From Proteromonas lacertae (lineage: Eukaryota), in assembly GCA_002245135.1 (NCBI GenBank), contig NGBS01000618.1, forward strand, positions 1 through 64,000: a stretch of 64,000 bases of DNA, written 5' to 3'. This document shows positions 19,244 through 64,000 of the stretch, piece by piece. A model generated the notes under the pieces. It did no database searches. It worked only from the letters and a program-made list of their open reading frames with translations, and was not told the origin of the DNA. How positions within the stretch are numbered: the stretch's first letter is position 1; each line of letters opens with the position of its first letter. A program made the translations under genes and the position numbers.

Positions 19244-19378
19244 ATTATTTATATTTTCCTCTTTATTGTCTTTATTTTGTTTATTAGAAAAATTGTAATA
19301 TGTAATTGACTGATTTAGAATTTTATTAAAATCCATTTCAAAACAAAATAATTCTAAGAATATATATTAAACCTCCCC

Positions 19379-19777: not shown

Positions 19778-22700
19778 CTACATCTTCTGTAAAGAGTGGA
19801 TGAATTTATATGACAAAAATTTGTACATATCATAAGGTACAACTGCCAATACTCCCTTTCGTATATATTCTATACTAACATTATAACAGAAATGATATGA
19901 ATCAAAATCACCGTTAGATATAAGTTGATCAGTGTATGACTTAAACACTCCACTATTATTCTCATTCATACTATTAGTTAAAATATCAACATCAATATCT
20001 TCAACAGATAAACTATCATTAAACAGTAATTTCCAGAAATAAACAGGAAAATATTGAAGTATATCAAAACTTACTGATTCTAGTATTAATCCAATTAATA
20101 CACCTATTCCATAATAATCCTTTTCCAAATAAACACTCTTTCCGTTTATATTGATCATATATTTACCACTTCTATTACTAAATAAGTATTTATGATTCAT
20201 TGCTACATATAATATATAAGAAATTGATATTTGTTGATAAGATTGATTTAATATTGACAATGAATGAGTTAAAGCAGTTTTCTTACAGTTTGATATATTC
20301 CATATATTATTTAAGAATTGATGATAAACACAATTACATGAACTATCTTTTACTTTTATTGAATCATTCAACATTATAGTAACTAATGTCAACTTTGGAA
20401 AATATGAATAATAACTAACTATAATCGACTGGATAGTAGTAGTTGTTAAATAGTACTTTATTCCTTCACTAAATGGCATTTTTGAGATACTTAATACATG
20501 CTTATTACTTGTAGATACAATACTTTGGTTTAATCTTGATAAACAGTATATTCTAAAACATAAATGATATAGTAATCTCTTCTCAATTATTTCTTTCATT
20601 ATTTCTTTATCATTCTTCAACATATTATTAATTATGGATTGTTTATTTGATGTAATAAAATCAAATTTCATTATACATTCATCATATTTGTATTTCCATT
20701 CATCCCACTTATATAAGAATGAATATTTATCTTCTTGATCTTCTTTACAACACTCTATATCATCATTAACTACACATTCATTATCTTTAATCTCTACATT
20801 ATAACATGAAGATTTATAAACATCATAAAAGAATTCTTTTCTGTTATTCATTTTATCTTTGTATAAGAAATATTGAATGGTAGTATATAATTCATTTAAT
20901 AATTTATTATTATCATCTGATTCATGATGATGATGGTTCAGTTCATATAACAATTTTATACATTCTGATGTATTTACTAATTTTGAATTTTTACTCGAGG
21001 AAACTATACCTTTTGATTCTTCAGTGCAATAATAATAATAAGGATTATTATTATTATTATGTAAAACTGAATATAACTGTCTCAATTCAATAAATTTATC
21101 ACCATTTCCTTTCTCTACTTCTATTTCCTTATATTTATTATTAGCTGTTGATAGATTTAAATCATAATTTGATGGTATAAAATATAACAATGATGTTAAA
21201 CAGGATAGTATATTGTTATATTTATATAATGAATCATATTGGTTATTATATTCCTATATAATAATATAAATAATGAATAATATTATTTATATACTTTTAA
21301 TTTATAAACTTTGCTCACTACATTTGATTTCTTATTATGTAAAATGAATGAATTGAAATCATTATCTATCACCAATATATACCAATCATTACAATTCTGG
21401 TAAGTTAATGGTATTGAATATAAAATATTAGTTTCTTCTACCAAATCTTTCTTCACTAATGATGTATACTTGCAATTAATATCATATAAGTCACCTAATG
21501 AGACATATCCTATGTGACTATGTTGTCTTACAAATGGCAATTCATTCATCAACTTGTATGAATTTACACGCGATCTAAATATACCGTAAAAAAATAAGAA
21601 TTAAAGAAACAATAACAGAATGGTTATTAGAATATTCAAAAAAGAAAAAGATATAATATTTGAATCATTTATCATTACAGGTGATATACTATTTTGGTTA
21701 TTTGATAATTCTGATGGAATAATTGATTGATATATCGAATTATCACTCATTTTAGTGAATCTAATATCATTGGTTGATTCTAGTAAATCTGACTGTTGAT
21801 ATAATATATTCAGTGGTAATTCATTAATTGAGAATATGTATAAAGTATAACCATACAATGTATCTTTATCTTCTTCACAATCACAACTAAAATGAATATT
21901 CAATTCTTCAATATTACCTACTGGTATTAGATTCATTGGTTTATATTCATTCTTAAATTCATAAGAATTATCTTCAGTTTTGAAGGTTAAAACAGCACCT
22001 TCAGATAGTTTTAGTGTTGAGATGTATATATATGAATTTGGTTTTGTTATTGCTACATGTTCTTCATAATTACATTTCTTTGGATGATTATGGAATGACT
22101 CTGATAGATAATAATTACATTTATATTTCTTTAATGCTTCTTTCATTTCAATATCATACATTTTATTCAAAGTATCTTTATATCCATTCATTTCTTCATT
22201 GTTAGTTGTAGTTAGCAGTATATTCTTAAGATTCTTGTTTATTGATAATAAATACTTCATTTCAACTGTATCATTTCCATCTATTGACTTACAGTAATTC
22301 ATATAATATTTCGATAATATTTCTGGCTTCATATTATTCAATAATAAACACCTATTCATCAACTGCAACATATCTGAGTATATCAATTGATATATCTCAT
22401 TCATATTCACATCGTTAAATGATTTATTATTGAATGACATACATCTCAAATTAGATACTCTTTCATACTTCGGTATTATCATATTCAAACTATTATTCTC
22501 AATTTTCACTTTAACTGTATTTTCATCTTCGACTTCTATAGCTTTACCAAAGTATAATGAATCTTTATTACTATTTACTATCAAAACATTCTCATTAACA
22601 TCAACAACTTCTTTCTTTTTATTATAATCACTTTCAATGGTTGAGACTTTGATTAAATAGAATAATGATTCTTCTGGTTTAGTATAAGATTCTATTTTTT

Positions 22701-33230: not shown

Positions 33231-35492
33231 TTACTTGGATGATTGTTTCTGAGTTTCTTCTTCATGTATCTTCACTTTCAAACTCTTGATTTCATCTTCA
33301 TTCACTGTTACTTTCTTACCTTCTTCAATATACGAAGGAATTGTCTCAGCCATATTAATCTGTTTCAAATATCTATTTCTATAATACAATACTATATTTG
33401 AATATTTTCCAGCTTTCTGAGCTATCTCCATTGCATGTTCCCATCTAAATAATCGAATATTCATCTTAATAGCTCTATAAGTCAATGGAGGATAATGTTG
33501 TAATAACATAGCTTCAGCTTCTTCTGGTCTTCTTTGATATAAGGATAATTCAGCATTCTTTACTGTATCATTTGGTAAATTCATTATATATAATATATAA
33601 CTCTGTTTAGCTACTTCACCAAGGCAAGCTAAAGCTTGTTCTGCTCTATTTAATTGATTATTACCAATTGCCATTGCAGCTAAAGTAGCCCATAATGCTT
33701 CTGACTCTACAAATCGACATAATCTAATTGCACCATCCCATTTACCTGTTACTATTAAATCATACAATATAGCAGGATAAGGTGAAACACTTGTAGATAT
33801 TAAACCGCCATTTTGATTCTTTATTGTTAATTGATTACCAGTAAATGAATATATTTCAGGTGATTTTCCTAGATATATATCATATCTTGTTTCTATTGTT
33901 TTCTCTAATAGATCTTTATCAATATAAATAATCTTTGGATAATAGAAACTTTCTATTTTACCATCACTTAAAGCAATCAACATATTACTGTTAGTTGCCC
34001 AACTTATACTATCAACCATTGATAATAGTTTAAATGGTTTATTCTTACTAATATTAGATATATATAATTCTCTATTTACATCTATATAAGCTATCATTCT
34101 TTCTTTATCTTTCCATTGACTTAATGCTATTTCTTCTATATTATGAGGATGAAATAAACCATTTCCTAAAGGTTTACCACTACTTACATCAAAGAAACGA
34201 ATAGTTTTATTATCACTTCGATCTATTACACCTAATATATCAGAACTCAAACTGATTGTCTTATTATTTAAGAATTGAGTTTGTAATCCTTTAAATCTAG
34301 GTGAAGATGTTACTCTTCCTTCATAACTCATTATTTGAATACCATTTGTATTATCTACTAACACAAAACTAGTCTCACCAGGTATAATTAAACTACAACT
34401 GTATCTCAAATCAAATGAATGAGGAGAAGTCCAATTACCACATTCATATATAAAACATTGAGTTGATGTTGCTACAACTAAATGATCATAACTCATTGCC
34501 ATTTCCACTATTCTATCACGATATTCCAATTCTTCTTTACTACCATTATTACTATCAATTATTTGAATTGTTCTACTATCTGTTTCTTCTACTGTTAAGG
34601 ATTTCCATTGTAATTTTCTTCCAATTGCATATGCTACAAGCATTGAACCTGTACCACAAGCACAACCTAATACAGTACCATCTGTACTCCAGCACATATC
34701 AAAGGGAGATCCATCTTCTATTGCTTGTCTTGCACTACAGAATCCATTATGTTCACATAATCTCAATGAACCAAAACAACCAACTACAAATTGATCACCT
34801 GATGGTTTCCAAGATACTGATGTGATTACATTGTCTACTAAAGAACTTTGATATAATAATCGACCATATGGATCCCATATCTTATATCTACAATCTTCAC
34901 CACCTGAGATTATTAGATTATTTACTGAATTCCAGTCAACTTTCATTATTACGCCATCATGAGCTTTCCAACGTAATTGTCTAGCTGCATTTTGTAAACC
35001 TTTGATTAATAAATCTTTTCCTGAAGCAATAACCATTTGATCTCCATCTCCACCCCAAGAGAAGGAATATACTGAATTGGGTAATTGTGCTATTACTGCT
35101 CTTGCCATACCTGTTTTTGACCATGCTTTTACTTGACCATCTTCACCACAAGACACAATTGCTCCTCCATCCATACTCCACTTTACATTAATAACAGCTC
35201 CACGATGTGCATCTACTTTCTTTTCCTCTCTACCACTTTTGTTTACTATTCTGTAAGTACCATCAGTACAACCGACTAAAAATATGTCTGAAGAGCTAGC
35301 TCCATGTGTTGGATACCAATCAATTGATGTGATACAACTATCTAAACTACAAACTGATCCTAAGTTTTGACCATCAATATCCCAACGATATATTGTTTGA
35401 TCATCAGAACCTGTGTAATATTCATTTGATGGGCTGAAACAGATTGCTGTTGCCATATCTGTATGGCATCTCTTACCTTTTCTAACATTCAT
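33231..35492 (-). CDS. IFT80: Intraflagellar transport protein 80 (IFT-B), intronless
   Basis: 753-aa WD40 + TPR-like ORF with IFT80 signatures GREEKKVDAHRGAV, WKAHDGVIMKVDWNSVNNLIISGGEDCRYKIWDPYGR, AIRLCRFV, LWATLAAMA and YRAIKMNIRLFRWEHA. Confidence 0.97.
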   Translation of the reverse strand: MNVRKGKRCHTDMATAICFSPSNEYYTGSDDQTIYRWDIDGQNLGSVCSLDSCITSIDWYPTHGASSSDIFLVGCTDGTYRIVNKSGREEKKVDAHRGAVINVKWSMDGGAIVSCGEDGQVKAWSKTGMARAVIAQLPNSVYSFSWGGDGDQMVIASGKDLLIKGLQNAARQLRWKAHDGVIMKVDWNSVNNLIISGGEDCRYKIWDPYGRLLYQSSLVDNVITSVSWKPSGDQFVVGCFGSLRLCEHNGFCSARQAIEDGSPFDMCWSTDGTVLGCACGTGSMLVAYAIGRKLQWKSLTVEETDSRTIQIIDSNNGSKEELEYRDRIVEMAMSYDHLVVATSTQCFIYECGNWTSPHSFDLRYSCSLIIPGETSFVLVDNTNGIQIMSYEGRVTSSPRFKGLQTQFLNNKTISLSSDILGVIDRSDNKTIRFFDVSSGKPLGNGLFHPHNIEEIALSQWKDKERMIAYIDVNRELYISNISKNKPFKLLSMVDSISWATNSNMLIALSDGKIESFYYPKIIYIDKDLLEKTIETRYDIYLGKSPEIYSFTGNQLTIKNQNGGLISTSVSPYPAILYDLIVTGKWDGAIRLCRFVESEALWATLAAMAIGNNQLNRAEQALACLGEVAKQSYILYIMNLPNDTVKNAELSLYQRRPEEAEAMLLQHYPPLTYRAIKMNIRLFRWEHAMEIAQKAGKYSNIVLYYRNRYLKQINMAETIPSYIEEGKKVTVNEDEIKSLKVKIHEEETQKQSSK

Positions 35493-35758
35493 TATTACTT
35501 TTAAAAAATCAAAATAGATTAGGCTTAAACTAATAAGAATGAATATAAAAATAAGCCTCGAGCGTTTTTTGAATTTTGAATTTTAAAGCTGTTTTTCTCT
35601 TGTTGTAAACCATATTGAACCGTGTTTTATATTTTTATGGACAATATAAGATGAAACAGAGGTATAATTGAGTAAAAATTAGTGGAATAAGAAGAAATGT
35701 GAGATAGTACAATTACTACCCAAAAAATGTTATTAAGCGATAGAAGCAGTTATTATAA

Positions 35759-42800: not shown

Positions 42801-44456
42801 TGAATCTACCAGAATATAATGATGTAGTATCAACAAATAATATAAATATTGACAAATTGATATTTGATTTGTATATGAATTATTCATCACAAGCAGGGAG
42901 AGAACTGATTGAACATGATAGATCGTATATATATATAATATTTTATGTGAATAGTAAATTATGTGATTTGAATGATTCTAACAGTGTAGGATTAGTATCA
43001 ATTCACAATATTGTGGATCAAATATCAATTGAATGGTCCAAAGATGCTGAAAATTACAGAAATATCTGTTTAGACAGATTTTTATCTTATGACTATGAAA
43101 CACTAATAGCTAATAAAGGAAACAACATATTAGAATTATCATACTATGAGAATATGAAAATAATAAATGAGAATATTTGTTATGCTGTTTTATATATTTT
43201 ATCTCATGATAGAGATAATAGTGATATCTTATATGAAAATGGTAAAATATTAGCAAGAAAAGCTTATAATGAGAATATATGTTATAAAGAGAGAGTAATT
43301 GCTTTACAGTGTCTGTTTTTACTCTGTCCTTCAAATGTGATTGAGATATTAATGGACAAACCAATTAATGAAGTTCATATGTATTGGCAGTACTGTAAGT
43401 ATGATTATTATTATTAATTGTTATTATTGTTTATAGTTATTTATCAGTGTTAGAAGAAAAGAAATTGACATATTCATATGATGAAATAACATCAATTGAT
43501 AAAGAATATCTAATAAGTGGAATATTGAGAGATTATCCAAATGATGCTGAATTGGTAAATATGGTAACACAAATGCTATTAGATTTCAACATTAAGAATA
43601 TATCTTTTTATAATTGTTGTTAATCATTCTTCTAATCTGATTTCTTTAATTAAGAGTTTACCTTAAAATATGGATTAATGTGTTTAAGAAATTAGTCAAT
43701 TTGAGACAATATCGTTTGATAATAAAGATAATGATAGAATTAACCAAAACAGAATTAATAGAATCATATTCTCCTTTATCTGATTTGTGGAATCAAATAT
43801 TACAGAAACTAATACAAGAAATATGTAAACAATACCAAAACAGTATGAATAACATAGAGTATAAGTGTGAAGCAAATCATTTACTTAATAAGATAATAAT
43901 CATCTGTGAATCAAATCCATTCCTATTGAAAATGAATATATTGTCAATGATAAAAACACTCGTTAATATTGGAGATGATTTTATCCCAATTGTTGTTAGA
44001 TTATCATTGTTAATCCCTTCAATTAAAGGAAGAATAGATGTATTAAATCAATTTGTGAATAAAGGATATTATATAGAAGTATTATATGGATTAAGTAATG
44101 GAGTAAGTGAGATATCTTTAACAGAGAATTCAATAGAGTTGAATTTGATTCATAAGATATATGATGAAATAAATAAGCAGAAACTGTTCTATATGATTCA
44201 ACCAACTCAGTTTTATTCAGATTTTGTAGATTATTTGATATTCACTAATTCAATAGATTTTATCATTGAAAATTTTGTATGTAATGGAAATATTGATGAT
44301 GCAATTGGATTATTGAATAATTATAATGAGAAGAATGAAAATAAAGAAATGTCAATGACAAATAACAAGAATACAACAAGACTTCAACTATTGAAAGAGT
44401 TTATAACCGAATCTCAACTTTTAAGTAATAATCTATTATCTTTATTACCTTTCTAA
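37034..44456 (+). CDS. KNTC1: Kinetochore-associated protein 1 / Rough deal (Rod, RZZ complex), many short introns
   Basis: Motifs in Rod order: CYETNPLQRIK..LLRQG, FSPQNWHIF...EEGNIRNSILIWRRH, WLKHEVLPHM, MIDRV...IKPYCEKHGL. Gene length is consistent with a ~2,000-aa protein. Confidence 0.75.
39813..39852. repeat. (TA)n microsatellite in a KNTC1 intron
   Basis: Uninterrupted TA run of about 40 nt following an intron GT. Confidence 0.9.
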
Positions 44457-47830: not shown

Positions 47831-48728
47831 AAAAATTATATTCGTTTCAGTTTTTAAGTTTTGAGAAATTAAATGAATGTATAAGTTTAGATTATTTTTA
47901 TTATAGTGAATAGATAATAATATATAGTGTACATGTCAATTTGATGTTTGATTCACATAAAGATGCTTAAAATAAATATCCAAGTAAAAATGTGAAGTGA
48001 AAGGCGGTTAAGAGAAAGTAAATATGCAAATTAATCTATTGGCTATATAAGTTATTGTCTAAAAATCAAATTTCAATAGATTCAAGGAATTATTTTATAT
48101 GTGATTGTATTTATACTAATGTTACAACAAATTACTATCATGTGAGTAGAATGAGTTTAGTGAGTAATTTTTCGACTTGGTTATGCAAATTGTGAATATA
48201 GGAAGTGAAGAGAAGAGAGAATATGATAAACCTAAGAGAATATTACAATCTTCCACATGTTTATACTATTAATTCAGTAGTAAATGTTCGAATTGGATTT
48301 GTTTCTTATTTAGGTTGGATATTACAACAACTAAGATAACACCGAATATGTTATATGCAAAAGTATCATTAGCTAATGATTATTTGAATTAGTGTTATTA
48401 TAAACTGATATACAGGTAAAATAAAAGCTTCCTATACATTTGATGTATGGTTTTTATAATAGAAACAGATAATGGTGACTAATACTCATCATCCATTATA
48501 AATGTAATAATAGATACCTAAGCCACTGACTATTTGTCAGGATGACTTAAGAATACTCTGTAGCAATATAACGGTTATTTCCCCCTTTGGCTTATTACTA
48601 TTGCTATTACTATTACTATTATTATTATTATTATATAGATATATATTATATTACTTTATAATGAAAAAATAAAAAAGAATAAAAAAGAATAAAAAAGAAT
48701 AAAAGAGAATTAATATTTATATATAAAT

Positions 48729-51700
48729 ATGAAATTTTTAGACATTCTAGTTCAATTATACCCTAATATAATACATGATGATGTTTATTATAGTAATTCT
48801 TACAACGTGTTGGTAGTTGATGATACTATTTATAATTTCAATGAAAATACTCAAAAATATTATGAAGTAGTTTTTTATGAAGAATTCACAAATATTGATG
48901 AATTAATTAATATATACAATAATAAGAAAGTAAATATATATTTTCAAACAGACAAACCATCCATCATCATTACATTGTTAAGATTTAATGTTATTATAAT
49001 TTATAAAAATCAATTCATATCTACAAAAGTGGCTCAATATTACTTAAGACAAAATTTAGATAATAAAAATGAAGATTTTCTTTTCTATAATAATGAAAAA
49101 GATGTAATAATGGATAAAGTTATTGATAACTTTCTATTTCTTGCTTTTATATATTTCAGTAAAGTAATTACTACAAATGTAGAAAGAAATATACCATTGT
49201 TTTATAAGTTAATTGATTGTTATAAAAGAATTAATAATAAATACAGAGATTTTGGAAAGTGTGTAAAATATGTATTTGATGTAATAGGAGAGTTGGATAG
49301 AGAAATTATAAAGAAAGCAAATGAAGAGGTTATAATAGAGAAATTATATTATCCTCAATTCTATAAAAGTTTTAATGTAATAAAGGGAAAAACAATCAAT
49401 TATAATAAAAAAATGGTAAGTAGTATTAATGATATAGATTATATAAATAATAATTATTGTGTATTAGATTCTATCAATCCATTTTTATTCAAAAGAAATT
49501 ATACTAGTAAAAAATCAGTGGAAGATATGGAATATTTGGTTGGTAAATCAATTAGAATTGATTTTCCTTATTATTTAACAAATGTAATAATTGATAGAAT
49601 ATTGTCATATAATTATACAATACAAAGTAAAGGATATGTTACAAGATCAAGTAGAAACAATAAATCAGCTGTATTAGATTTTTTGAAAATTAAAGAAACA
49701 ATTAATGAAGAATATAGAAAAGGTAAGTACATTATTCAATACTCTGTAGAAGATAAAGTTCATTATATTTCACTAGATGAAATAAATATTGATAGTGTAA
49801 TGAATAGAGGAAAAAGAAAAAGAAGAGAAAAAGTAATTAATAGAGAAGATACACACAATAATAAAAGAATAGATGTTGATAATAATAATATAAGTAACGA
49901 ATATGATGATATTGCAGCAGATGGTTATGAAGATGAAACAGATAGTTCTGACAATGATGATAATACTAATGATGAAGATTATAATATTCTTAATAATATA
50001 ACAAAGAATGACATTTCTAATAGAAATAATAATGTATATGATGAAGATAGTAATGATGGAGATGAAATTGAATTAGAAATAATGACTGATGAAGAGGAAA
50101 TAGCTGTAGATGAAAATGGAAGAGATGGTAATGATGATGGATATGTTGGTTTTCGTGATGATGATGATGATAACGATGAAATATTAGATGATTCAGTATT
50201 ATATGATGATAGAGATAGTGAATATGAAGGTAGAAATGGCGATAGTGATAAAGAAAAATTATCGGTATACTTATACTATTTCTTTCTGAAGAATTCTATA
50301 TCTCAAGATAAAGTAAATAAGTTATTGAAACAATTAAACTCAATAGAAACAATAAAGAATTTACATTTAAAAGAAACATTCAAGCCTTTACGAGATTATG
50401 TTGAAAAGGTAGTAGGATTAAAAAAACCAGACAAAAATAATTATATTACAATTGAAAGTGGGATTAGAAAAATGTTGAAGAAGAAAATAATTAAATTTGA
50501 TGATTCAATTAATAATAATAAAAGCAAATATAAGAGCATTTATAGTAGTAACAATTACAAAAACATTTATAATTTAGATGTAAATAGAGAAAATTTCAGA
50601 CATATTTTGTTACAGATCAGTAGTGATGGTGTTGAAATAAATCACTTTAGCTTTATTAAAAAAAGTGTAAATGTTTTATCATACAAAGTATTAAATAATT
50701 ATAATGACAGTAAATTACTTCAAGTAATAAATATAAGTGATAATGATGATAATATAAATGATATTACAAAATTAGTAGTTGATGAATTAAACAATATATT
50801 TATTAAAGGTATAGAGGTAGAAGGTGTCAAATATAATATATATTTGGTAAGTATAGTAGGTGATATGATTGGAATAATAAAACTAATGAAATTACATAAT
50901 TTCGTAGGTAGTAATAGTTTCTGTAGAACTTGCACAGCAACTACCAAAATCATTACTATTAATAAAATAATCAATAATGTTGTAGTTGAAGAAAAATTAA
51001 AAATAAAAGACTCAATGAGAGCTTATAAGAAGAAGTATCAGAATTTATATCCTCAATTTTATCAATATAAAGAAAAAAGACTATTCCATATATTTAATAA
51101 CTATTCATATAGTAGATTTTTAAGAACTTTCAATAAAAAGCAACACAAAGAAGATATACAAAGCAGTTTTCGATCATTAATTTACTATGACATTAACTTA
51201 ATAACTTTTGATGCGATGCATACAATAAACAACTGTTTTAATAGGTTTTATGATCAAATGAAAGACAATATAATTAATTTATACAACAATAATCAATTTA
51301 AAATGGTTTATACTCAATCTTCATCATTTTACAATCTTCAGCTAAATAAATTTACAAAGTATAACATGATAGAACAAAACCACTTCTTTTTATATATCCT
51401 ACCTCTAATGATAATAAAATTAAGAAAAGAGAGTGAAATAATGATTTATGATGGATTATTCAACATCATAGATATAGTAAATAATGCATTAAACTATCAA
51501 TTCAGTAATATCACTTTAAATAAGATGGAAGACATTTTAGTAACTAATTTAAATATTATGGAATTATATATATTCTTCACTCCATCCTGTCATGATTTGG
51601 TTCACTTAATTAAATATTTGTCTAATATAGGCCCGCTTATTCACCAGAGTACAAGTGTTTATGAAAGAAGTTATAAACAAATAAAAAACATCTCTATAAG

Positions 51701-52121
51701 TAATAATCATCAAAAAACATCAATCTTAAATACAATATCATCAATTAACCAAATATATGTTTATAATTATAATGAAAAAATGAAGATCAATAGAAAATAT
51801 AATCTAGTTATTAATGATTCTAGATCAATATCTGACCTTTTTAAAACATTTCCATCTATTCATTATTATTCAATTATATCCTTCCATAGTGGAGAAAATA
51901 TTCATTTTGGTATTATAAAGTCAATAAATAATTCGCAAATCCATTATAATGAAATAAATGTTACAAAAATTACATTAACAATATACAAATATATAAGCAT
52001 TACTACATTGGATAAAATTGTTGATATAAATGATATTATTATATTTAATAATATATTCAAATTCAGTGATGTAGAATATTATATCTTTATTAGTGAAATA
52101 ACATTCTATAAAGATTTGTAG
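48729..52121 (+). mobile_element. CACTA/EnSpm (CMC superfamily)-like DDE transposase ORF, 1130 aa, intronless; element ends not found
   Basis: An acidic tract is followed by ISQDKVNKLLKQL, LQISSDG, SIVGDMIG...HNFVGSNSFCRTC, FDAMH and HDLVHLIKYLSNIGP...VYER. This is the motif order typical of Tnp2/EnSpm-type transposases. Confidence 0.75.
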
Positions 52122-53855
52122 TTTAATCAATTAATATTCTAAATGTTTAATAATATTTGTTTGTTAAATATATGATGAAATCAAATACATTTGTTGTATA
52201 ACGTTGGGAGATAAATGGATTTTAGATTGCGTTGAAGTTATAAACGTAATCTAAATCCCATAAATATTACAAAAATACACTTATATTTTATTGTTCTGGT
52301 TACTCAGTTATATATGTATCACTGCTTGTTTATACTTAATATTAAACATCTGTAGCAATAGTAGAAAACGAAATTAAGGCTAAAAATGATTAGAATTAGA
52401 TAACTTTAATTTCTTTATACTTAATATTGAATTTGAAATTATAGGCTTGAAAGAGGTTTGAACTCAATTTTTATTTTTCCTTTTTTAATTACCTTAACAT
52501 CTTTTTTTTCACATCTTATTCATCTCAGGTGATGAATTTTTGTCTCCAGAAGCTTTAAATAAAATATATCGCAAATGTAGCTTATATACCAAAATAAGAT
52601 TATATTTGAATATAACTCACTACCTAGCCCTCTACTGTCATATTATTTTCTATAAAACCCATTTATCTCCCAACGGCATAAATCTCCTAATGGCTTATAA
52701 CAACATCGCATAATTCAATCAATTAAAATACTTCTCTTTACTGTCTTCTTCTCTTCTTGTCTTTTTCTAATACCTCTTCTTATTCCTCAACATTATCTAA
52801 TCTATTTATTCCTAAATTATCATCTTTGAACTTCTTTATATCACTTTCGTATATTAACAATGTAATTATTTCATCATTTTCATCACACATTTCTTCTTTA
52901 TAATTGTTTCTTAATCATCAATGTATAAATCATTTACTTTTTCATTAAATGTATATACACATGATACTATGAATATTATTCTATACAATTAGCAAATATA
53001 TGCATGTTTATATACAAAAATAGTTAAAATAACTAATTACAATCAAAATGATAATATTTTACACAAATAATAAAATTACATTAAAAGATGACAATTACAT
53101 GTATTTTTACTTCTTTTACTTTTTTTATTTTCTCATTTTTCTCTTCATATACTAATGAATATGTATTAATTTCTCTATCATGAATCAAATAAATAAATAT
53201 TCAATCTGAAGTTATATGTAATATAGGTTGCTAATCACTTTTTCTACTATATTACTTTGAAAGTGCATATAACGCAATATAAATTTTATAATTATACAAT
53301 TAAACATTAGATATAACTATATAACAACTAATTAGAATAGATCCTCTAAATTTGAAATGTCATTTATATACAAGGAGATATTTTCTTAGCTTTACTCACA
53401 TAGATTTACAATTTATATATTATCTTTAAGAATAATTCGAGAATTCTAATAAGTCTTCGGTACAAAGTGATTGCCCAGTGTTTGATAGTTTACTAATAGC
53501 AAGCGAATTTAGTTATGAAATATTACTTAATTTAGAAATATTGTTGGTTCTGTCGAGTTGGAATTTCTATTAAAAGTCTATCTAAAAAGTATTAAAATTT
53601 GATATTTTTAATTTATAGCTAAATACAAACTTCAACATGTAATTAATAGATGTGTAGAGTATTGGCTTTTTATTCAAACTTAAAGACAATTAAAAAACGA
53701 AAAGAAAATGGTGTTAAAGTCAAAATTCAACGAGCCCAGCTTGGGTCAAGTATATAAGTCCTATTTGCAAAATAGATTAGAATTCTTATAGTGGCTTGAG
53801 TTATTTTTCTTTTTTTAATTGTAAGTGAGCCATCCATTATTTTTTAAAATTGATA

Positions 53856-55264
53856 ATGAGTTTTTCAGATAGATCAAACGACTCACCATTTTCATCGCAA
53901 GGAGATCCATTTGAACATATTTTATCATATTCTGAAGATTATATAGATTTAAAGAAGGTATTCTACTTTAATTTACATCACTGTAGATTTCAAGACTAGT
54001 TTATATGGCAGATAGAAACAATGAGTATTCTAGACATGCTTTTCTAGAAGCACTTAAGTACAGCAACAGCAAGCACATTCCAGCTTTTATTGAAGAAGTA
54101 TAGAAATAATTAATAACAATTATAGCTTAAACAAATCAATGCAAAACATCAATTTCACTTTGATGACATATTAAAGGACACTGTAAAGTCACATAACTTA
54201 AAAATCATTGAAACAACTAGAAAGGTATATTTTCAAGATTATTTGAAATTCATAGCTTGATTTAGAAAACAGAGCAGAATATTTCGCAAACAAACACGAA
54301 TACAACAAAGCAGTCGCATCGTTAGTCCAATCCAGACAATATGGCAACACAGACAAAGATCGAGGATTAACTCAATTAAAGATATGTAGTTTAGTCTCTA
54401 TCTTCGGTGATGGTAAAAGTCTATTAAATCACAGTCAATATAATAAAGGACTATTAGAATTAAAGAATCAAAGTTTAGAAATTTATCATGGTTTGAACGT
54501 ATGTTATGCTTTAAGTAAAATCATCACACCCTGCAAATTAGAAGAATATAAACGAAATTTAAGAGATGCTTCAAGGATATTAAGAGATGTAATATTATCA
54601 AGAAGGTATAAAGAAGAAGTTATGCCGTTTAATCATGTGATTATATATTTTGTAATTTCTTTCATTTGTGGTTCAAGCAGAGATGAATTATTGAGTGAGG
54701 TAGTGAATAATTCAACATTAATGAAGATTATTAAAGAATCATATCCAAATTTGAAAGTATTGTTTAATTCTATTACTCAATGTGATTATAAGTCCTATAG
54801 ATTATCTTGGATTAAAATGAATGTATATATAATGTATATTCATTTTTATACCCAAATTTTACATATTTTTTTTATTTTTTTATCTTTATTATTATTGTAA
54901 TAGAGATTCATTGAAAATGATTATATTCTCAGATTTACGAATGTAGCAATTGTAGGTTTATTCAAGAAAGCATCATTAGAACAGTACTTCAAACCATATG
55001 CTATCATTAAACTATCATTAATGGCAGAAGAATTTGGTGATAATTTAGATAATTTTCAAAAAGAAATGAACAATTTGATAATTACAGGAATTATTGACGG
55101 TGAAATTGATAAAGAGAATCAATATTTATATTTGAAGAAAGTCAAATGTATATATTTATTTACTAATTTTATTTATTTATAAATCTGACTATAGAGCACC
55201 TAGTTCTCATGGTCATTTAGTCCAAAGAAATCTGAGCATTTCGATAGAACATATTAGTAATTGA
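53856..55264 (+). CDS. CSN1: COP9 signalosome subunit 1-like PCI protein (divergent), left copy
   Basis: Spliced translation MSFSDRS...KISRLVYMAD...EALKY...YNKAVASLVQSRQY...SSRDELLSEVVNNS...NDYIL...LEQYFKPYAIIKLSLMAEEFG...LIITGIIDGEIDKENQYLY follows CSN1/GPS1 (Rpn7 family) motif order. The last exon is uncertain. Confidence 0.7.
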
Positions 55265-55467
55265 AACTGATTAATTATATTGTTTTTATTAATATATGTT
55301 TGTATAAATCGGTTATGACCTCTAGTAAGTATTAGTTGACCTCTTTTGTAGTATGTGTTTCTAATCATAAAATCATGTATAAACATATTAAGCTATATAT
55401 ATCATTCAACAAAAGATAAATTAACAGACGGTTGATTATTAACATTTGATTATTATCTCATCTAAAC

Positions 55468-58172
55468 CTGGGTTCGATAAAGGGCGTCCTTTTCGAATTT
55501 TGCCCTATTTTTGCCCCTTTTTTTTCAGCTGAAAAGAAGCCTGCCCCTTACTGCTCGGGCATAGTAATATTACCATGTGTTATGCTGTAGTATATTTTTT
55601 CTGATTTTTTGTTATAACTTTTCCATATTATCATCTAGATATACTAACATATGTTAAAAAGGATATATTATTGTGTATTATAGCATAATAGTCATCTACT
55701 TTTCTTATGATTATATAATATCATATGTTTATGCATATATACTAATTATATAGAATATACATACTGTATATCATATTCTGATATGCATATATATACATTA
55801 TGTACATTTCAAGGTGATTGACGTCACTGAACATAAATGAAATTTATATAATAAATAATTTTGTATATTACACATATATCATATAGATAATTAAGAAGTA
55901 TAGCTATAGAATGGGTATTTTCAGTTAATTGATAATCAATAGTACTTGTTATGATAATAACATAATATATTTCATAAACTAATAGAAAAACTATTTCAAA
56001 ATTACTATTTAGTATATTTTGCATACTACTTAATGTATTTCAAGCAATTATTTCAATACTTAGAAAATGGTTTGAGAATTTCGAGCTATCATTTTGCATT
56101 TCAATTGTATATGGGTAAAACGAGAGATGCTGTGTATAGATACTTTAATGAAGATGTGGTGTTAAAGAAACCCCTTGAAAAATACAACAGAATTCAATGC
56201 AGAAGGTGCAAGGCAATGATTATTGCTCATTGCACTAATTTGAAACGTCATTACAAAAAGTATAAATATATTTATTATATTTATTAAATTAGATGTAGTG
56301 AAAAGCTAATCCAATCAAAACTTACATAATTGAGATATGATGAACGTGCAATAAACTTAATGGTGACCAAATATCTTATAGAAAATAACTTAGCTTTCAG
56401 AACCATACAATCTAAATCCTTTAAAAATCTAATATATACATTAAATCCAACTACAAAGTCAATAACAATAAACAAAATAAAAGCATCAATGAACGAAGAA
56501 GCAGAAAGAATAGTAAAGGAAATTGTAGATAACAGTAAAATATGTATAATTGTGGACGCTTGGAAATCAGTAACCAATGAAAACGTTATTAATTTGGCAA
56601 TAAAGAAAAGCAGTGATATTTCGTTTTTGGAATCCATTTATTTACATAAACGAGAAACATCAGAAAATATAGTGGAATTAATAATTCAAACATTAGTGAA
56701 GTATAAACTAGATATTAAAAACATTGTTGCTGTGAGTAGTGATAACAACTACACCATGAAAAAGATAAGTAGTATTTTAGAGAAAAAAATAAATAGACCT
56801 GTAGTAAAGTTTGGATGTTTAGCACACATCCTAAACTTAATCAGTAAAAAAGTATTCGAAATAGAGAAATACAAAAAAGTGATAGTCATGTGTAATGACA
56901 TTATTCATAAGTTAAATAATAATCAAAAGATTAGAGAAACTATATATTCAATTATACAAAAAAATATCCAAATACGCAAGGGTTGTGATACGAGATGGTC
57001 AAGCTATAGCGATGTATTTAGAAAAATATTACTCAATAAAGAAATTTTATTACAGATAAAATTATTAAAGGAAGAAGATATACAAGAAATTAAAGAATGC
57101 TACAAGATTGCAAAATATATTTCCACAAATATACACTTATTATGCAAAGATTCATCTACATTAAATGATGGTTTCAGAATATTGACCAAAATTAAAAGAA
57201 AGTTAATGAAAAGGTCATCAAGTGAAAAAGAACTTATTAAAGACATTATAAAAAAAGAGACTAGACATGCAAACTACAGCATTTTAGCTCTATATGAATT
57301 TTTAGACATAAACAGTAAACATAAATTTTCAGACATGGAGAAGGATAATATAAAAAGATATATATTATCTAAATTCAGCCCTATTTTAAATCAGAAAGCA
57401 TTAAATGAGATTTATCATTTTGAAAGAAGAAAACCATACTGCAAAAAGTGCCCTTCAGATATATTTTCGAAAAAGATATCAACTAATATATGGTACAATA
57501 TGTATGGAGTTTTTTACCCAAATGTTAAGAAGCTATATGATATTCTTTCAACTATTCCTGTCACAAGCTCATTTATTGAACGTTCATTTAGTATTGAGGG
57601 AATAGTTCATAATCATATTAGAAATAAATTACAGCTTAATACTATAAATAATATTTTAAGAATAAAATATGATTTATTAAAAGAAAAAAACAAAGAAAAA
57701 GATATAAATGAAGATGATAATGATATTAGTGAAGAAGAATATAATTTAGATGTGCTGAATGAAATTGATAACAATATAGTATATGACACTTTAGATTATC
57801 AATGTTCTGGTGATGAAGATGAAAGTTCTGGTAGTTCTAGCGATGAAGGTTTAAGTGATGAAAGTTCTAGTGATGAAGGTTTTAGTGATGAAGGATCTCA
57901 AAGCCCTTACTTTTAAGGCTATTATTATAATGAAATATTATTGTTTGTTATTGTTATAAGATAATAATACATAATTATGAAAAGAATAAATATTTTTATA
58001 GCGTTTAATATCCCTAAAATCGCACAAAATATAAAAATTCAAATAAAATAATTGAAAAGGGCAAATTGTACCCTTTTCTATTTTTAGATAGTATAAAGGA
58101 CGCCCCTTTCAATTTTTGCCCGGGACATGCCCTTGTCCCGCCACTGCCCTGTCCCTTTATTATTCAACCCAG
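55468..58172 (+). mobile_element. hAT DNA transposon, 2705 bp, 8-bp TSD ATCTAAAC
   Basis: ATCTAAAC at 55460-55467 and 58173-58180. Termini CTGGGTT...AACCCAG, with imperfect extension ATAAAGGG/CCCTTTAT. GCCC/GGGC subterminal clusters at both ends. The empty site is visible in the opposite palindrome arm (58662-58669). Confidence 0.95.
56111..57916 (+). CDS. hAT transposase (BED finger + DDE + dimerisation domain) with one in-frame TAA at 56327-56329
   Basis: BED finger YRYF...CRRC...NLKRHYKK|C across intron 56260-56292. Also IVDAWKS, SSDNNYTM, CLAHILNL, TRWSS and PVTSSFIERSFS. Confidence 0.9.
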
Positions 58173-58864
58173 ATCTAAACTGAAACTCAATACTGGATAA
58201 TCCACAATATTCATTGTTATTACACTAATTATTAAACAACTTCCTTGACAATTTGTATTGATTTGAGATACTACATCGTAAGCAGCTGTGCAGCTTATAT
58301 CTTTCATTTTATAACTTCCTTTATATACTAAATTTCTTTCATTTGTTATAAAGGAAGTGATTATCTCATAACTTTTCATTAAGTGGTGATAATTGTAATG
58401 GTAATTTATTATACAGTAATGCGATAACATACAGTTTACTTAGTCGTAACTATCAAAACTTAATGAAAAGTTATGAGATAATCACTTCCTTTATAACAAA
58501 TGAAAGAAATTTAGTATATAAAGGAAGTTATAAAATGAAAGATATAAGCTGCACAGCTGCTTACGATGTAGTATCTCAAATCAATACAAATTGTCAAGGA
58601 AGTTGTTTAATAATTAGTGTAATAACAATGAATATTGTGGATTATCCAGTATTGAGTTTCAGTTTAGATGAGATAATAATCAAATGTTAATAATCAACCG
58701 TCTGTTAATTTATCTTTTGTTGAATGATATATATAGCTTAATATGTTTATACATGATTTTATGATTAGAAACACATACTACAAAAGAGGTCAACTAATAC
58801 TTACTAGAGGTCATAACCGATTTATACAAACATATATTAATAAAAACAATATAATTAATCAGTT

Positions 58865-60273
58865 TCAATTACTAATATGTTCTATCGAAATGCTCAGATT
58901 TCTTTGGACTAAATGACCATGAGAACTAGGTGCTCTATAGTCAGATTTATAAATAAATAAAATTAGTAAATAAATATATACATTTGACTTTCTTCAAATA
59001 TAAATATTGATTCTCTTTATCAATTTCACCGTCAATAATTCCTGTAATTATCAAATTGTTCATTTCTTTTTGAAAATTATCTAAATTATCACCAAATTCT
59101 TCTGCCATTAATGATAGTTTAATGATAGCATATGGTTTGAAGTACTGTTCTAATGATGCTTTCTTGAATAAACCTACAATTGCTACATTCGTAAATCTGA
59201 GAATATAATCATTTTCAATGAATCTCTATTACAATAATAATAAAGATAAAAAAATAAAAAAAATATGTAAAATTTGGGTATAAAAATGAATATACATTAT
59301 ATATACATTCATTTTAATCCAAGATAATCTATAGGACTTATAATCACATTGAGTAATAGAATTAAACAATACTTTCAAATTTGGATATGATTCTTTAATA
59401 ATCTTCATTAATGTTGAATTATTCACTACCTCACTCAATAATTCATCTCTGCTTGAACCACAAATGAAAGAAATTACAAAATATATAATCACATGATTAA
59501 ACGGCATAACTTCTTCTTTATACCTTCTTGATAATATTACATCTCTTAATATCCTTGAAGCATCTCTTAAATTTCGTTTATATTCTTCTAATTTGCAGGG
59601 TGTGATGATTTTACTTAAAGCATAACATACGTTCAAACCATGATAAATTTCTAAACTTTGATTCTTTAATTCTAATAGTCCTTTATTATATTGACTGTGA
59701 TTTAATAGACTTTTACCATCACCGAAGATAGAGACTAAACTACATATCTTTAATTGAGTTAATCCTCGATCTTTGTCTGTGTTGCCATATTGTCTGGATT
59801 GGACTAACGATGCGACTGCTTTGTTGTATTCGTGTTTGTTTGCGAAATATTCTGCTCTGTTTTCTAAATCAAGCTATGAATTTCAAATAATCTTGAAAAT
59901 ATACCTTTCTAGTTGTTTCAATGATTTTTAAGTTATGTGACTTTACAGTGTCCTTTAATATGTCATCAAAGTGAAATTGATGTTTTGCATTGATTTGTTT
60001 AAGCTATAATTGTTATTAATTATTTCTATACTTCTTCAATAAAAGCTGGAATGTGCTTGCTGTTGCTGTACTTAAGTGCTTCTAGAAAAGCATGTCTAGA
60101 ATACTCATTGTTTCTATCTGCCATATAAACTAGTCTTGAAATCTACAGTGATGTAAATTAAAGTAGAATACCTTCTTTAAATCTATATAATCTTCAGAAT
60201 ATGATAAAATATGTTCAAATGGATCTCCTTGCGATGAAAATGGTGAGTCGTTTGATCTATCTGAAAAACTCAT
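58865..60273 (-). CDS. CSN1: COP9 signalosome subunit 1-like PCI protein, mirror copy
   Basis: Reverse complement of 53856-55264 within the palindrome. Confidence 0.7.
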
Positions 60274-61700
60274 TATCAATTTTAAAAAATAATGGATGGC
60301 TCACTTACAATTAAAAAAAGAAAAATAACTCAAGCCACTATAAGAATTCTAATCTATTTTGCAAATAGGACTTATATACTTGACCCAAGCTGGGCTCGTT
60401 GAATTTTGACTTTAACACCATTTTCTTTTCGTTTTTTAATTGTCTTTAAGTTTGAATAAAAAGCCAATACTCTACACATCTATTAATTACATGTTGAAGT
60501 TTGTATTTAGCTATAAATTAAAAATATCAAATTTTAATACTTTTTAGATAGACTTTTAATAGAAATTCCAACTCGACAGAACCAACAATATTTCTAAATT
60601 AAGTAATATTTCATAACTAAATTCGCTTGCTATTAGTAAACTATCAAACACTGGGCAATCACTTTGTACCGAAGACTTATTAGAATTCTCGAATTATTCT
60701 TAAAGATAATATATAAATTGTAAATCTATGTGAGTAAAGCTAAGAAAATATCTCCTTGTATATAAATGACATTTCAAATTTAGAGGATCTATTCTAATTA
60801 GTTGTTATATAGTTATATCTAATGTTTAATTGTATAATTATAAAATTTATATTGCGTTATATGCACTTTCAAAGTAATATAGTAGAAAAAGTGATTAGCA
60901 ACCTATATTACATATAACTTCAGATTGAATATTTATTTATTTGATTCATGATAGAGAAATTAATACATATTCATTAGTATATGAAGAGAAAAATGAGAAA
61001 ATAAAAAAAGTAAAAGAAGTAAAAATACATGTAATTGTCATCTTTTAATGTAATTTTATTATTTGTGTAAAATATTATCATTTTGATTGTAATTAGTTAT
61101 TTTAACTATTTTTGTATATAAACATGCATATATTTGCTAATTGTATAGAATAATATTCATAGTATCATGTGTATATACATTTAATGAAAAAGTAAATGAT
61201 TTATACATTGATGATTAAGAAACAATTATAAAGAAGAAATGTGTGATGAAAATGATGAAATAATTACATTGTTAATATACGAAAGTGATATAAAGAAGTT
61301 CAAAGATGATAATTTAGGAATAAATAGATTAGATAATGTTGAGGAATAAGAAGAGGTATTAGAAAAAGACAAGAAGAGAAGAAGACAGTAAAGAGAAGTA
61401 TTTTAATTGATTGAATTATGCGATGTTGTTATAAGCCATTAGGAGATTTATGCCGTTGGGAGATAAATGGGTTTTATAGAAAATAATATGACAGTAGAGG
61501 GCTAGGTAGTGAGTTATATTCAAATATAATCTTATTTTGGTATATAAGCTACATTTGCGATATATTTTATTTAAAGCTTCTGGAGACAAAAATTCATCAC
61601 CTGAGATGAATAAGATGTGAAAAAAAAGATGTTAAGGTAATTAAAAAAGGAAAAATAAAAATTGAGTTCAAACCTCTTTCAAGCCTATAATTTCAAATTC

Positions 61701-64000
61701 GGGGTATTTTTTTTTGAACAGCTGCTCAAATTTTGAACAGGCTGTTTCTAAAAGCGCCATGAATCTCATATTGAAATTTGTCTGACTATTATTAATTATT
61801 TTAGCTTTTCTGAATTGTGTGTGGTATTTAGACATCATCAATGTTAATCATTAGAAACAATTAGATCGTTCTAGGTATCAGTCTATTATAAATAATATCT
61901 GTACACTGGACCTCCAGTTTTTTCTATTCTAATCTCTCTATTTAGAGAGAATAATAAAAAACAAATAAAATTGACGCAAGCCAGGTTTGAACATTTTTTC
62001 AAATTTTTATATTTTGAGCACCTGCCTCCTATAGGAAGTAAGGGCGCAATATAATAATATATTATGTGTATATGATGATTTTATCAAACATTCATTTAAT
62101 AATATTAATCAAATTTTCATAATCTAGCTATTTCCTTAATTAGTAACAATTGATTCCTAGCAAAATAAAATAATACTAGCTAATAACGCTTGTCTATCAG
62201 TCTATATATTATAAGACCTATTTGTACTATTATTAAACATATTTGTAAATATTGCGAATTATAACAAACAAAACACTAACAAATGTATATTTATTTGTTA
62301 CTCAGTGATAATTTAACAATTTTCTTAAAAACAAATCATTAAAGTAAATTTTGGCAATCTTACATCTATTCGAGTAAGTCAACATATTAGCCATTGGATA
62401 AGTTAAGAATTTAAAATCATCTACTTCTCGTTTTATAATCATGAATTTTGACAATTTGCTTTCTAAAGCATTTCTTATACCTACAACGAAGATATCTCTA
62501 TTGAATTGTAATTGATATACTTCTACTAATCTTTTCATATATTATAAAGCTACTTCTTTTATATTCAATTTACCTCTCATGATTTAGCTTTCAATATCTC
62601 AACTTTTACAACCATTCTTTAAAAATTTTCAGGTGTAAGAAGATCTTTATCATTTGTAATTGTAACCATTTTTATCATTTGTAAGTATAAATATCATAAA
62701 TTACTTCAATTGGTGGAATTCCATTTTCATTTAACTTACTTATTTAGTAATAATCTAATGTCATAGTTTTTTCACCTTCAAACAATTCAATTAACACATC
62801 GGGTTGTTAATTACTGTATGTACTAAATACTTGAGTATTATTAACTAAAATGTTAATAATTCTTTTAATCTACACAATTATTACACCACTAACTTTTATA
62901 ACAACATTTCATTTTATAACAACATTTCATCCAGTTTCTCATCTCTATCAACACTATTGTAAAAGTAACAGATTGTATTCCTGCAGTAAAAGCTAAATCT
63001 ATTTAAATTGAATTATATGCACATATTCTATGCATAAGGTTTCTAACATCATTTTTTGCTTTTGTCTTATTATAAACATTCTAATTTGTATTGTTTAATA
63101 CTCATAATATCTTCAAAATTCAAAAATTGGTTCAAACTTTAGCTTGAAAATCCCATTTATTTTTGTGTTTTTTGGATGATATATGTGGATTATGAAATAT
63201 TTTTTGTATATAATAAATTTATTTACACATCTAGAACAAAATGACAACAATAATTATTTTTAAAAGTAAAGTAGAAGAAAAAATGGTAGTAGAATATCCA
63301 CAGATCCCCCATTGCTTGAACAATTTGAGAAAGCTGGATATAAAGTAGAAGCAGATATATATATAATCCAAATATTATAATGGTTATTGAAATCACAGTT
63401 GATGTTAGTGATTATTTAAAAGAATATTAATATCTTATATTCTGGAGGATGTTTTTCAATTATTTTCAAGTATATATTATCCTAAAAGTTGATTATGATT
63501 GTCTATTATGTAATTAAATTCTTAATTAGAGATGTTTTTATAAAACAACATTAGAGGATAAGAATGTTATATTTTGTAAACAGATAGAATAGTAGAAGAA
63601 TATTGATTGTGTAAATAAACACATAAGCATATATGTCAATTTCAATCAAGTAGTTAAAACATAATATGGCAAATGAAAAGAAATAGAATCTATTGATAAC
63701 AAATATAATTCAATTATAGTTAAATGTACATCTATTGTTAATAAGAAATGCTTTAGAAAGCAAATTATCAAAATTCATGATTATAAAACGAGAAGTAGAT
63801 GATTTTAAATTCTTAACTTATCCAATGGCTAATATGTTGACTTACTCGAATAGATGTAAGATTGCCAAAATTTACTTTAATGATTTGTTTTTAAGAAAAT
63901 TGTTAAATTATCACTGAGTAACAAATAAATATACATTTGTTAGTGTTTTGTTTGTTATAATTCGCAATATTTACAAATATGTTTAATAATAGTACAAATA
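61701..64000. mobile_element. Putative long-TIR (Mutator/foldback-like) non-autonomous element, truncated by the window end
   Basis: Palindrome symmetry stops abruptly at 61700, followed by GGGGTATTT.... Segment 62219-62478 is an inverted copy of 63741-64000 (sum 126219, one mismatch seen) that continues off the window. No transposase is visible. Confidence 0.5.
62458..63011 (-). pseudogene. HSP70: Decayed HSP70 fragment (substrate-binding domain)
   Basis: The minus strand reads TQVFSTYSN*QPDVLIELFEGEK, GIPP.IEVIYDI, VTITNDKDLLTPE, RMVVKVE and RNALES, in HSP70 order, with stops and deletions. Confidence 0.75.

Follow-up and report, generated by a model that had tools for sequence, protein, structure and literature searches.

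Palindromes with near-identical arms, intact gene pairs and a unique spacer are found on primate and mouse sex chromosomes, where they undergo arm-to-arm gene conversion; their arms measure from 9 kb to >1 Mb, their spacers are on the kilobase scale, and they are common to several species. The palindrome described here likewise has near-identical arms with intact gene pairs around a unique spacer, but its arms are 3.2 kb and its spacer is 73 bp, and the presence of a hAT transposon in only one arm argues against recent conversion.

In budding yeast, fold-back repair of a break uses a short natural inverted repeat and leaves a non-palindromic loop at the centre, and in two of three inverted duplications from wild-type cells the inverted repeat was 5 bp and its spacer 35 bp (PMC10622511). 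The centre of the present locus, TGATA/TATCA with a loop of about 59 nt, is of this kind. The yeast duplication runs on to a dicentric chromosome, which is then resolved at dispersed repeats; the copy here is 3.2 kb and, unlike that in yeast, ends in unique sequence without a recognizable repeat or microhomology, and its mechanism is one that we infer rather than observe.

There are precedents as well for palindromes as artefacts. Those in the 2013 draft of Adineta vaga (AV13) were judged likely to result from phased haplotypes having been wrongly scaffolded (PMC8494291), and multiple displacement amplification (MDA) produces many palindromic long reads with native-sequence centres (PMC13265396). 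The A. vaga draft likewise held gene-bearing palindromes, in an invertebrate-type assembly, that were read as biology; unlike those, the present structure has no gap, has unique flanks and carries an insertion in one arm. The inverted chimeric reads of MDA consist of inverted copies of nearby sequence around a native-sequence centre, as here (PMC13265396), but both arms of such a read derive from one molecule, so that a one-armed insertion flanked by a target duplication (TSD) would be unexpected.

Two perfect arms around a native-like centre

A repeat search of the window (the whole 64-kb stretch of DNA analysed) returned two inverted matches, 52429-55467/58662-61700 (3039 nt, 100% identity) and 58173-58394/58448-58669 (222 nt, 99%). 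The bases were then compared one by one, ungapped, outward from the centre after deletion of 55468-58180, i.e., the hAT and one TSD copy. This resolved the following parts:

52429 to 55467, plus strand: outer part of the left arm, ending at the hAT site, 3039 bp, 100% complementary to 58662-61700
58181 to 58384, plus strand: left arm, inner part, 204 bp, perfect complement of 58458-58661
58385 to 58457, no strand: non-palindromic spacer, 73 bp, 27% GC
58458 to 61700, minus strand: right arm, continuous over 3243 bp, in which one clean ATCTAAAC lies at 58662-58669

Each arm was thus 3243 bp long, without a mismatch or an indel, and mismatching bases were confined to positions ≤36 nt or >3279 nt from the centre. 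The first-pass annotation had described indel-free arms of this length around a 73-bp spacer; that description proved exact, and the arms are free of mismatches as well. A perfect reverse complement of 3243 bp cannot be attained by chance, and zero substitutions between the arms place their divergence at <0.09% (95% bound).

Arms that are 100% identical are also what is seen when one sequence has entered an assembly twice, and polishing can erase differences between two haplotypes. The locus could accordingly be single copy: two haplotypes, one with and one without the hAT, might have been joined head-to-head, or a chimeric long read that folds back, such as whole-genome amplification can yield, might have taken the assembler over the same sequence in reverse. 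We regard such an assembly artefact as unlikely, though it is the alternative to be weighed most carefully, because it calls for several coincidences, including a polymorphic hAT. It needs two haplotypes without a single SNP in 3243 bp, for which P = 0.04 if heterozygosity is 0.1% and P = 9e-8 if it is 0.5%. It also needs a gapless join, as there are 0 N at the centre or anywhere else in the window. The spacer showed no above-chance likeness to five library adapters: its scores were equalled or exceeded by a fraction of 0.07-0.99 of random segments from the window, in a test that is only as good as the adapter sequences supplied to it. With scores at this chance level, an adapter remnant in the spacer was rejected.

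The composition of the spacer is native-like, its 27% GC resembling that of the genome. At its edges, the outer 10 nt on each side pair with each other at 7 of 10 positions (chance P = 0.013, only mildly unlikely by chance), leaving a strictly unpaired core of 53 nt, and these pairs include the 5-bp inverted repeat TGATA/TATCA with a 59-nt loop. A short inverted repeat with further pairs and a long loop is the anatomy of fold-back priming, and highly identical inverted arms, with a short, asymmetric centre that has such a repeat at its edges, are what a fold-back inverted duplication shows. When 58181-58384 was folded as single-stranded DNA, a 204-bp stem was predicted (−232.5 kcal/mol, z = −43).

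The open reading frames listed at the centre are 58361-58690 (plus strand) and 58164-58439 (minus strand), and they contain one shorter frame that may be a gene:

58463 to 58690, plus strand: 75-codon ORF, beginning 5 nt within the right arm and directed outward

In the left arm, the twin of this ORF (minus strand, from 58379) has lost its last 6 codons to the hAT, and no Pfam family was found for this left copy.

A transposon in one arm only

The left arm is interrupted by an insertion, whose features are as follows:

55460 to 55467, no strand: left TSD copy, ATCTAAAC, 8 bp
55468 to 58172, plus strand: hAT-superfamily transposon, 2705 bp, ends CTGGGTT...AACCCAG
58173 to 58180, no strand: right TSD copy, ATCTAAAC, 8 bp

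The element has the 8-bp TSD on both sides and the short terminal inverted repeats of a hAT, and its ORF matched PF04937 (DUF659, E = 4.9e-12) and, with the C-terminal dimerisation domain of the superfamily, PF05699 (Dimer_Tnp_hAT, E = 3.8e-7, 30.2 bits versus a cut-off of 21.4). It shares with Ac, hobo and Hermes the 8-bp target duplication, the short terminal inverted repeats and a transposase with DUF659 and dimerisation domains. Elements of this superfamily prefer nTnnnnAn as target, and their ends usually begin with CAG/TAG; the octamer here fits that preference, whereas the element starts with CTGGG, unlike the usual ends, and also contains an in-frame TAA. The coding part comprises an N-terminal exon (56113-56259), a 33-nt intron and a main ORF (56330-57916, 528 codons), and the TAA (56327-56329) lies between that exon and the 528-codon ORF. 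Splice-site candidates were worked through by hand, and none was found that removes it. A ciliate nuclear code was rejected as its explanation, since the standard code leaves 20 long ORFs open, and all three stops are used to terminate them. With this stop between its N-terminal exon and its catalytic ORF, the copy may lack full transposase coding. No other copy of the hAT was found within the window.

The insertion site is 285 bp downstream of the left gene stop. Opposite it, the right arm has a clean empty site with one ATCTAAAC octamer, which bears out the earlier observation that a TSD-flanked insertion is present in one arm only. Since the hAT with its perfect TSD is in one arm and the empty site in the other, the arms are separate DNA copies with separate histories. 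If one molecule had folded back, the hAT would be present in both arms or missing from both, so that the first-pass argument against a simple fold-back read was sound, and this form of the assembly artefact is argued against.

The same asymmetry bears on the age of the structure. Arms that match perfectly for 3.2 kb, pairing imperfectly only in the 10 nt beside the spacer, and two intact gene copies would also fit an older real palindrome whose arms have been homogenised by arm-to-arm gene conversion, as in the primate sex-chromosome palindromes. This seems to us improbable, as a conversion tract over the site would have removed or copied the hAT, which is still one-armed; in addition, homogenisation is not the rule in this window, since its two other inverted repeats have diverged, although those are shorter and more widely spaced. 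It had been proposed that the palindrome is either very recent or maintained by conversion. The one-armed hAT and the divergence of the other repeats (99.6% and 93.5% identity) favour the first option over the second.

The hAT itself was considered as the origin of the palindrome and rejected. A hairpin from its excision predicts a spacerless centre where the element used to be inserted. The actual centre is 73 bp long and asymmetric, and a hAT with both ends and a perfect TSD contradicts this origin as well. Alternative transposition was rejected on the same grounds.

Sharp ends in unique sequence

Symmetry ends sharply at 52428/52429 and 61700/61701. No partner of the right flank (61701-64000) was found in 1-52428, and no mirror symmetry continues into the flanks in the window (to 64000); both flanks are unique, and the structure is not simply mirrored on toward the contig end. 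On the left, the suggestion that the true arms may be longer is thereby ruled out as far as the window reaches; it could hold only if an insertion started at 61701. Beyond 64000 there could be a larger, nested mirror structure, since a neighbouring inverted repeat of 99.6% identity runs off the window end.

The left flank ends with ...AATATT and the right flank starts with GGGGTA...; there is no TSD at the outer palindrome ends and no visible microhomology at the outer junction. Searches for terminal repeats, TSDs and other copies with the end of the left flank, the start of the right flank and the two ends of the hAT gave nothing beyond chance, which leaves the proposal that another element begins at 61701 without backing. 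For a 1135-aa ORF left of the palindrome, no Pfam family, no homologue of residues 560-1135 and no transposase identity were found.

Sharp outer boundaries on both sides would be expected if the whole 6.6-kb structure were a foldback-type mobile element, with 3.2-kb terminal inverted repeats and a captured host gene. We consider this very improbable, given the lack of an outer TSD, the absence of any other copy or fragment within the window, and the presence in the arms of a gene of ordinary host type that is also conserved in relatives. As for the assembly artefact, a locus with a polymorphic hAT and another polymorphic insertion at 52428 could look just as asymmetric as the one observed. However, that second insertion would have to be at least 2.3 kb, be present in one haplotype only and lie exactly at 52428, because the right flank is unmatched in the 52 kb of the left flank.

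One intact gene per arm

Each arm carries one complete PCI-domain gene pointing to the centre, in agreement with the tail-to-tail pair of intact, intron-containing genes annotated previously:

53856 to 55182, plus strand: left PCI-domain (Rpn7/CSN1-family) gene, five-exon gene model
53856-53957, 53987-54097, 54126-54224, 54256-54822 and 54904-55182, plus strand: exons of the left gene, 3′ end of the last exon uncertain
58947 to 60273, minus strand: right PCI-domain gene, mirror of 53856-55182, identical through the arm identity and with the same ORFs on the minus strand

The introns of the left gene are 29, 28, 31 and 81 nt. Three relatives were found, all of them fragments, at 62-83% identity; the spliced left-gene product aligned with one (P0003) across exon junctions 1-4 and matched the others (P0001 and P0002) at 83 and 82%. 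The C-terminal winged-helix domain was recognized by Pfam as PCI (PF01399, E = 1.9e-8, 34.8 bits versus a cut-off of 22), and the RPN7 domain scored 0.0092 (16.1 bits), under its cut-off of 29.6.

The two domains pointed to different family members. For the winged-helix exon, CSN1 chains were the top solved-structure matches (E about 2e-4, versus 0.25 for PSMD6/Rpn7). For the helical exon, the top match was 8amz_R, a 386-aa "PCI domain-containing protein" (E = 0.0027 alone and 7.7e-7 with profile A1), followed by PSMD6/Rpn7 (0.15), with no CSN1 chain among the matches listed; the helical domain is thus not nearer to CSN1 than to Rpn7/PSMD6. The predicted protein is about 375-390 aa, the listed PSMD6/Rpn7 chains are 378-389 aa, and the listed full-length CSN1 chains are 433-527 aa. 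The label "CSN1-like" therefore stood for the winged-helix exon and failed for the helical exon, which best matches Rpn7-type chains. These sequence comparisons take the gene no further than the Rpn7/CSN1 family, whose members include the proteasome-lid subunit Rpn7/PSMD6 and its paralogue, COP9 signalosome subunit 1 (CSN1/GPS1), and the name CSN1 is too specific.

No homologues of the helical exon were found among longer proteins. An exact 30-nt gene word gave 0 matches in metagenome contigs, and protein-profile searches for the loci of the relatives yielded 61 pattern matches in metagenome contigs and 28 in prokaryote genome contigs, none of which was confirmed. That convergent read-through of the two genes would make hairpin dsRNA is pure inference.

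Other inverted repeats in the window

With 25% GC and the standard code, the window has introns of 28-31 nt and encodes IFT80; Rfam found 0 families in the whole of it. Among eukaryotes with very short introns, dicyemids have a median intron of 27 bp (PMC6543705), but the GC content of Dicyema japonicum is 36.7% (PMC6736024), and the median in myxobolids is 22-27 bp (PMC13644364). Myxozoans are not known to have cilia. By self-BLAST of the 64-kb window, all of the repeats outside a 282-bp tandem array and its edge (3/3) were local inverted duplications of non-transposon sequence. Besides the palindrome these are:

62219 to 62478 and 63741 to 64000: inverted pair, 259/260 identical (99.6%), about 500 bp from the palindrome and running off the window end
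19362 to 19547 and 20314 to 20499: inverted pair, 93.5% identical, a copied coding fragment with the frame kept

A second near-perfect inverted repeat 500 bp away could be taken as a further sign of faulty assembly. Against this, the arms of both pairs differ, so that neither is one sequence entered twice, and the 93.5% pair is too diverged for a fold-back artefact; therefore, this genome does make such duplications. Three events of graded age (93.5%, 99.6% and 100%) in 64 kb raise the prospect, which we hold to be rather doubtful, that local fold-back or inverted copying is the main way in which this lineage duplicates its genes.

A model for the duplication and its implications

Taken together, these data suggest, with reasonable probability, that the locus is a real and very young inverted duplication of a 3.2-kb gene segment, into one arm of which a hAT was then inserted. 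In such a duplication, a break or stalled fork would have arisen just right of the present spacer, and the 3′ strand would have folded back on TGATA/TATCA, of whose surroundings 7 of 10 pairs survive, with a loop of about 59 nt. Fold-back priming or a replication template switch would have allowed the folded strand to copy about 3.2 kb of its own arm, and the new end would have been joined, without visible microhomology, to the sequence now starting at 61701. Insertion of the hAT 285 bp downstream of the left gene stop would have followed, making the 8-bp duplication, with no substitution since the arms were formed. The 73-bp spacer and the 2.7-kb hAT bulge would leave 204 bp of uninterrupted stem, which may reduce hairpin or cruciform formation and let the structure persist.

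On present evidence, the palindrome belongs to an ordinary class of structural variant and has no bearing on any open question. If it were an artefact, it would mean a mis-assembled locus and a falsely doubled gene. If the lineage did duplicate genes mainly by fold-back, weak hairpin processing or unusual break repair would be implied in an AT-rich, ciliated eukaryote with ultra-short introns, and the palindrome would be the youngest of the three events, caught before mutation with both subunit copies intact and the hAT fixing the order of events. If real, the locus would be a clean snapshot of the birth of an inverted gene duplication, with no substitutions, a central repeat that can still be read and a transposon that orders the steps. 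The survival time of a perfect palindrome with a 73-bp spacer could then be measured in this organism, and the locus could show whether duplication of a stoichiometric complex subunit is tolerated.

Geometry of the palindrome

To compare the arms, positions 55468-58180 were removed and the bases were paired one by one, without gaps, from the centre outward. This revealed two 3,243-bp arms, free of mismatches and indels, around a 73-bp spacer (58385-58457), exactly the arm length and spacer of the first-pass annotation; mismatches were confined to less than 36 nt from the centre and more than 3,279 nt out. A repeat search of the window returned inverted arms at 52429-55467/58662-61700 (3,039 nt, 100%) and 58173-58394/58448-58669 (222 nt, 99%). 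The symmetry ends abruptly at 52428/52429 and at 61700/61701.

Features of the palindrome
52429-55467 plus 58181-58384, left arm, 3,243 bp without the hAT element
58458-61700, right arm, 3,243 bp
53856-55182, left copy of the PCI-domain gene; introns of 29, 28, 31, and 81 nt, every exon in phase 0, end of last exon uncertain
55468-58172, inserted hAT element, 2,705 bp, ends CTGGGTT...AACCCAG
56113-56259, short hAT N-terminal exon, preceding the main ORF together with a 33-nt intron
56330-57916, hAT main ORF, 528 codons; DUF659 (4.9e-12) and hAT dimerisation domain (3.8e-7)
58463-58690 (+), mirrored from 58379 (-), 75-codon ORF starting 5 nt inside each arm and reading outward

No family was found for the 75-codon ORF, the last 6 codons of whose left copy are replaced by the hAT element. 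Both mirrored ORFs would share the palindrome centre as their upstream region.

The mirrored PCI-domain genes and their surroundings

Each arm carries an intron-containing gene, as had been described, with five exons that are identical between the arms. The copies do converge tail to tail, their stops lying 3,764 bp apart with the hAT element and 1,051 bp apart without it. A relative with 62% identity, itself unbroken at these points, aligned with the spliced product over exon junctions one to three, and the product showed 83% and 82% identity to two other relatives, which are 81% identical to each other. These three, all from read-run assemblies, were the only relatives detected in public protein data, and no more distant homologues were found at E ≤ 0.001. 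Judged from these alignments across the junctions, this is a real gene, with conservation in a small number of poorly sampled relatives. Searches of metagenome and prokaryote genome contigs recovered no locus of a relative.

The last exon encodes a PCI domain (1.9e-8), and the long helical exon matched the RPN7 domain only below the cut-off. Against solved structures, the winged-helix exon favoured CSN1, in contrast to the helical exon, which favoured an Rpn7-type chain and PSMD6; protein-atlas neighbours were a mixture of the Rpn7, CSN2, and PSMD12/CSN4 families. Thus, the predicted product is best named an Rpn7/CSN1-family PCI protein, and the earlier label "CSN1-like", though not wrong, is over-specific. 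The hairpin dsRNA proposed from convergent transcription would need read-through beyond the stops, from about 0.5 kb for the right copy to 3.2 kb for the left copy. Only two poly(A)-like hexamers lie within 562 nt past the gene stop.

The window has 25% GC and introns of 28-31 nt, and it uses the standard genetic code, as 20 long ORFs terminate in TAA, TAG, or TGA. It encodes IFT80 in one exon (33231-35582, -), and the ORF at 43650-44456 resembles mitochondrial ribosomal protein S22. On these features, the source is a poorly sampled, fast-evolving ciliated eukaryote whose introns are ultra-short. Dicyemids have introns of similar size, but the only GC value published for them is a different one. 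Immediately left of the palindrome lies an unbroken 1,135-codon ORF (48714-52121, +) with an acidic low-complexity middle; it matched no Pfam family, and residues 560-1135 had no homologue. By eye, a few of its motifs resemble CACTA/Tnp2-type transposases, with no other support.

A hAT insertion in one arm

The 2,705-bp insertion was assigned to a hAT element because its ORF matches DUF659 and the hAT dimerisation domain. It lies 285 bp beyond the stop of the left gene copy and is bordered on both sides by the octamer ATCTAAAC, which is present as a single clean copy in the right arm, at the empty site 58662-58669. No further copies were found within the 64-kb window. An in-frame TAA (56327-56329) lies between the N-terminal exon and the 528-codon catalytic ORF, and none of the candidate splice choices removed it. 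Given the standard code, this recent insertion may lack a full transposase and may therefore be non-autonomous.

Other repeats in the window

Outside a 282-bp tandem array, all repeats of the window are local inverted duplications of non-transposon sequence.

Further inverted pairs
19362-19547/20314-20499, 93.5% identical, spacer 766 bp
62219-62478/63741-64000, 259/260 identical (99.6%), spacer 1,262 bp, mismatch 62452 versus 63767

The first pair copies an internal coding fragment of a 491-codon ORF (19778-21253, -), the frame still being open; the copied fragment sits about 230 bp beyond the stop of that ORF. The pair is an older local inverted duplication. The second pair ends at the window edge, so its arms are possibly longer; it may represent either an inverted duplication of slightly greater age or an element that begins at 61701 and carries these as long terminal repeats. 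The last 57 ORF codons fall within its arms; on the left they form part of a longer ORF, and the copy on the right is fragmentary.

The tandem array (5871-14914) comprises at least 25 copies of the 282-bp unit, many 98-100% identical, with a higher-order period of about 2,524 bp (blocks at 6160, 8684, 11209, and 13733). Long ORFs on both strands enclose the array, which adjoins a helicase gene (AAA_11/AAA_12, 4015-6063).

A young inverted duplication or an artefact

We consider the palindrome to be probably a real, young inverted duplication. Misassembly of the locus, by joining two haplotypes head-to-head or through a palindromic read, is a less likely reading, for which the Adineta vaga AV13 palindromes (PMC8494291) and MDA palindromic reads (PMC13265396) are strong precedents. 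Perfect arm identity is also produced by mis-assembly and polishing, and the 99.6% repeat overrunning the window end makes a larger nested mirror conceivable. However, both flanks are unique, and the 52 kb on the left contain no counterpart of the right flank, indicating that the assembly does not merely run back on itself. By the same observation, the left flank is no insertion that interrupts a longer palindrome, which disposes, on that side, of the suggestion that the true arms may be longer. The centre is gap-free, not a single N occurs in the window, and the spacer is genome-like (27% GC), with no likeness above chance to the five adapter sequences compared. A hAT element flanked by its target-site duplication in only one arm shows the two arms to be distinct copies; the first-pass annotation had used this insertion as an argument against a simple fold-back read. 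For the haplotype version, four conditions must coincide: polymorphism of the hAT element, another insertion of 2.3 kb or more placed exactly at 52428, 3,243 bp without a SNP (P = 0.04 even at 0.1% heterozygosity), and head-to-head joining without a gap. Finally, the pair diverged to 93.5% cannot come from a fold-back error, showing that this genome does make such duplications.

An older palindrome whose arms are held identical by conversion appears highly improbable, and recency is favoured because the hAT element is still confined to one arm and divergence is seen in the other inverted repeats. That the structure is a mobile element ending in giant inverted repeats is scarcely credible, as its outer ends have no target-site duplication.

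Proposed origin and stability

A young duplication of this kind would have begun with a break or stalled fork immediately right of the present spacer. The 3′ strand would then have folded back at a short inverted repeat and been extended by copying 3.2 kb of the arm to which it belonged. Its new end would have been joined to what is now the sequence from 61701, and the hAT element would have inserted last, into one arm. At the centre, 7/10 positions of the inner 10 nt per side pair, including TGATA/TATCA (P = 0.013 by chance), and folding as single-stranded DNA gave a 204-bp stem, the 5-bp TGATA/TATCA pair, and a 59-nt loop. No microhomology at the join to 61701 was visible from the side in view. 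A centre with a short inverted repeat resembles yeast fold-back priming, for which one report describes wild-type clones using a 5-bp repeat and a 35-bp spacer (PMC10622511); unlike the events described there, this one produced a short copy that ends in unique sequence.

Between them, the spacer and the hAT bulge reduce the uninterrupted stem to 204 bp, which would disfavour hairpin or cruciform formation; greater separation of inverted repeats is described as reducing their instability (PMC10164571). The structure belongs to a known kind, a fold-back-type inverted duplication or small palindrome, and is unsurprising to a specialist.
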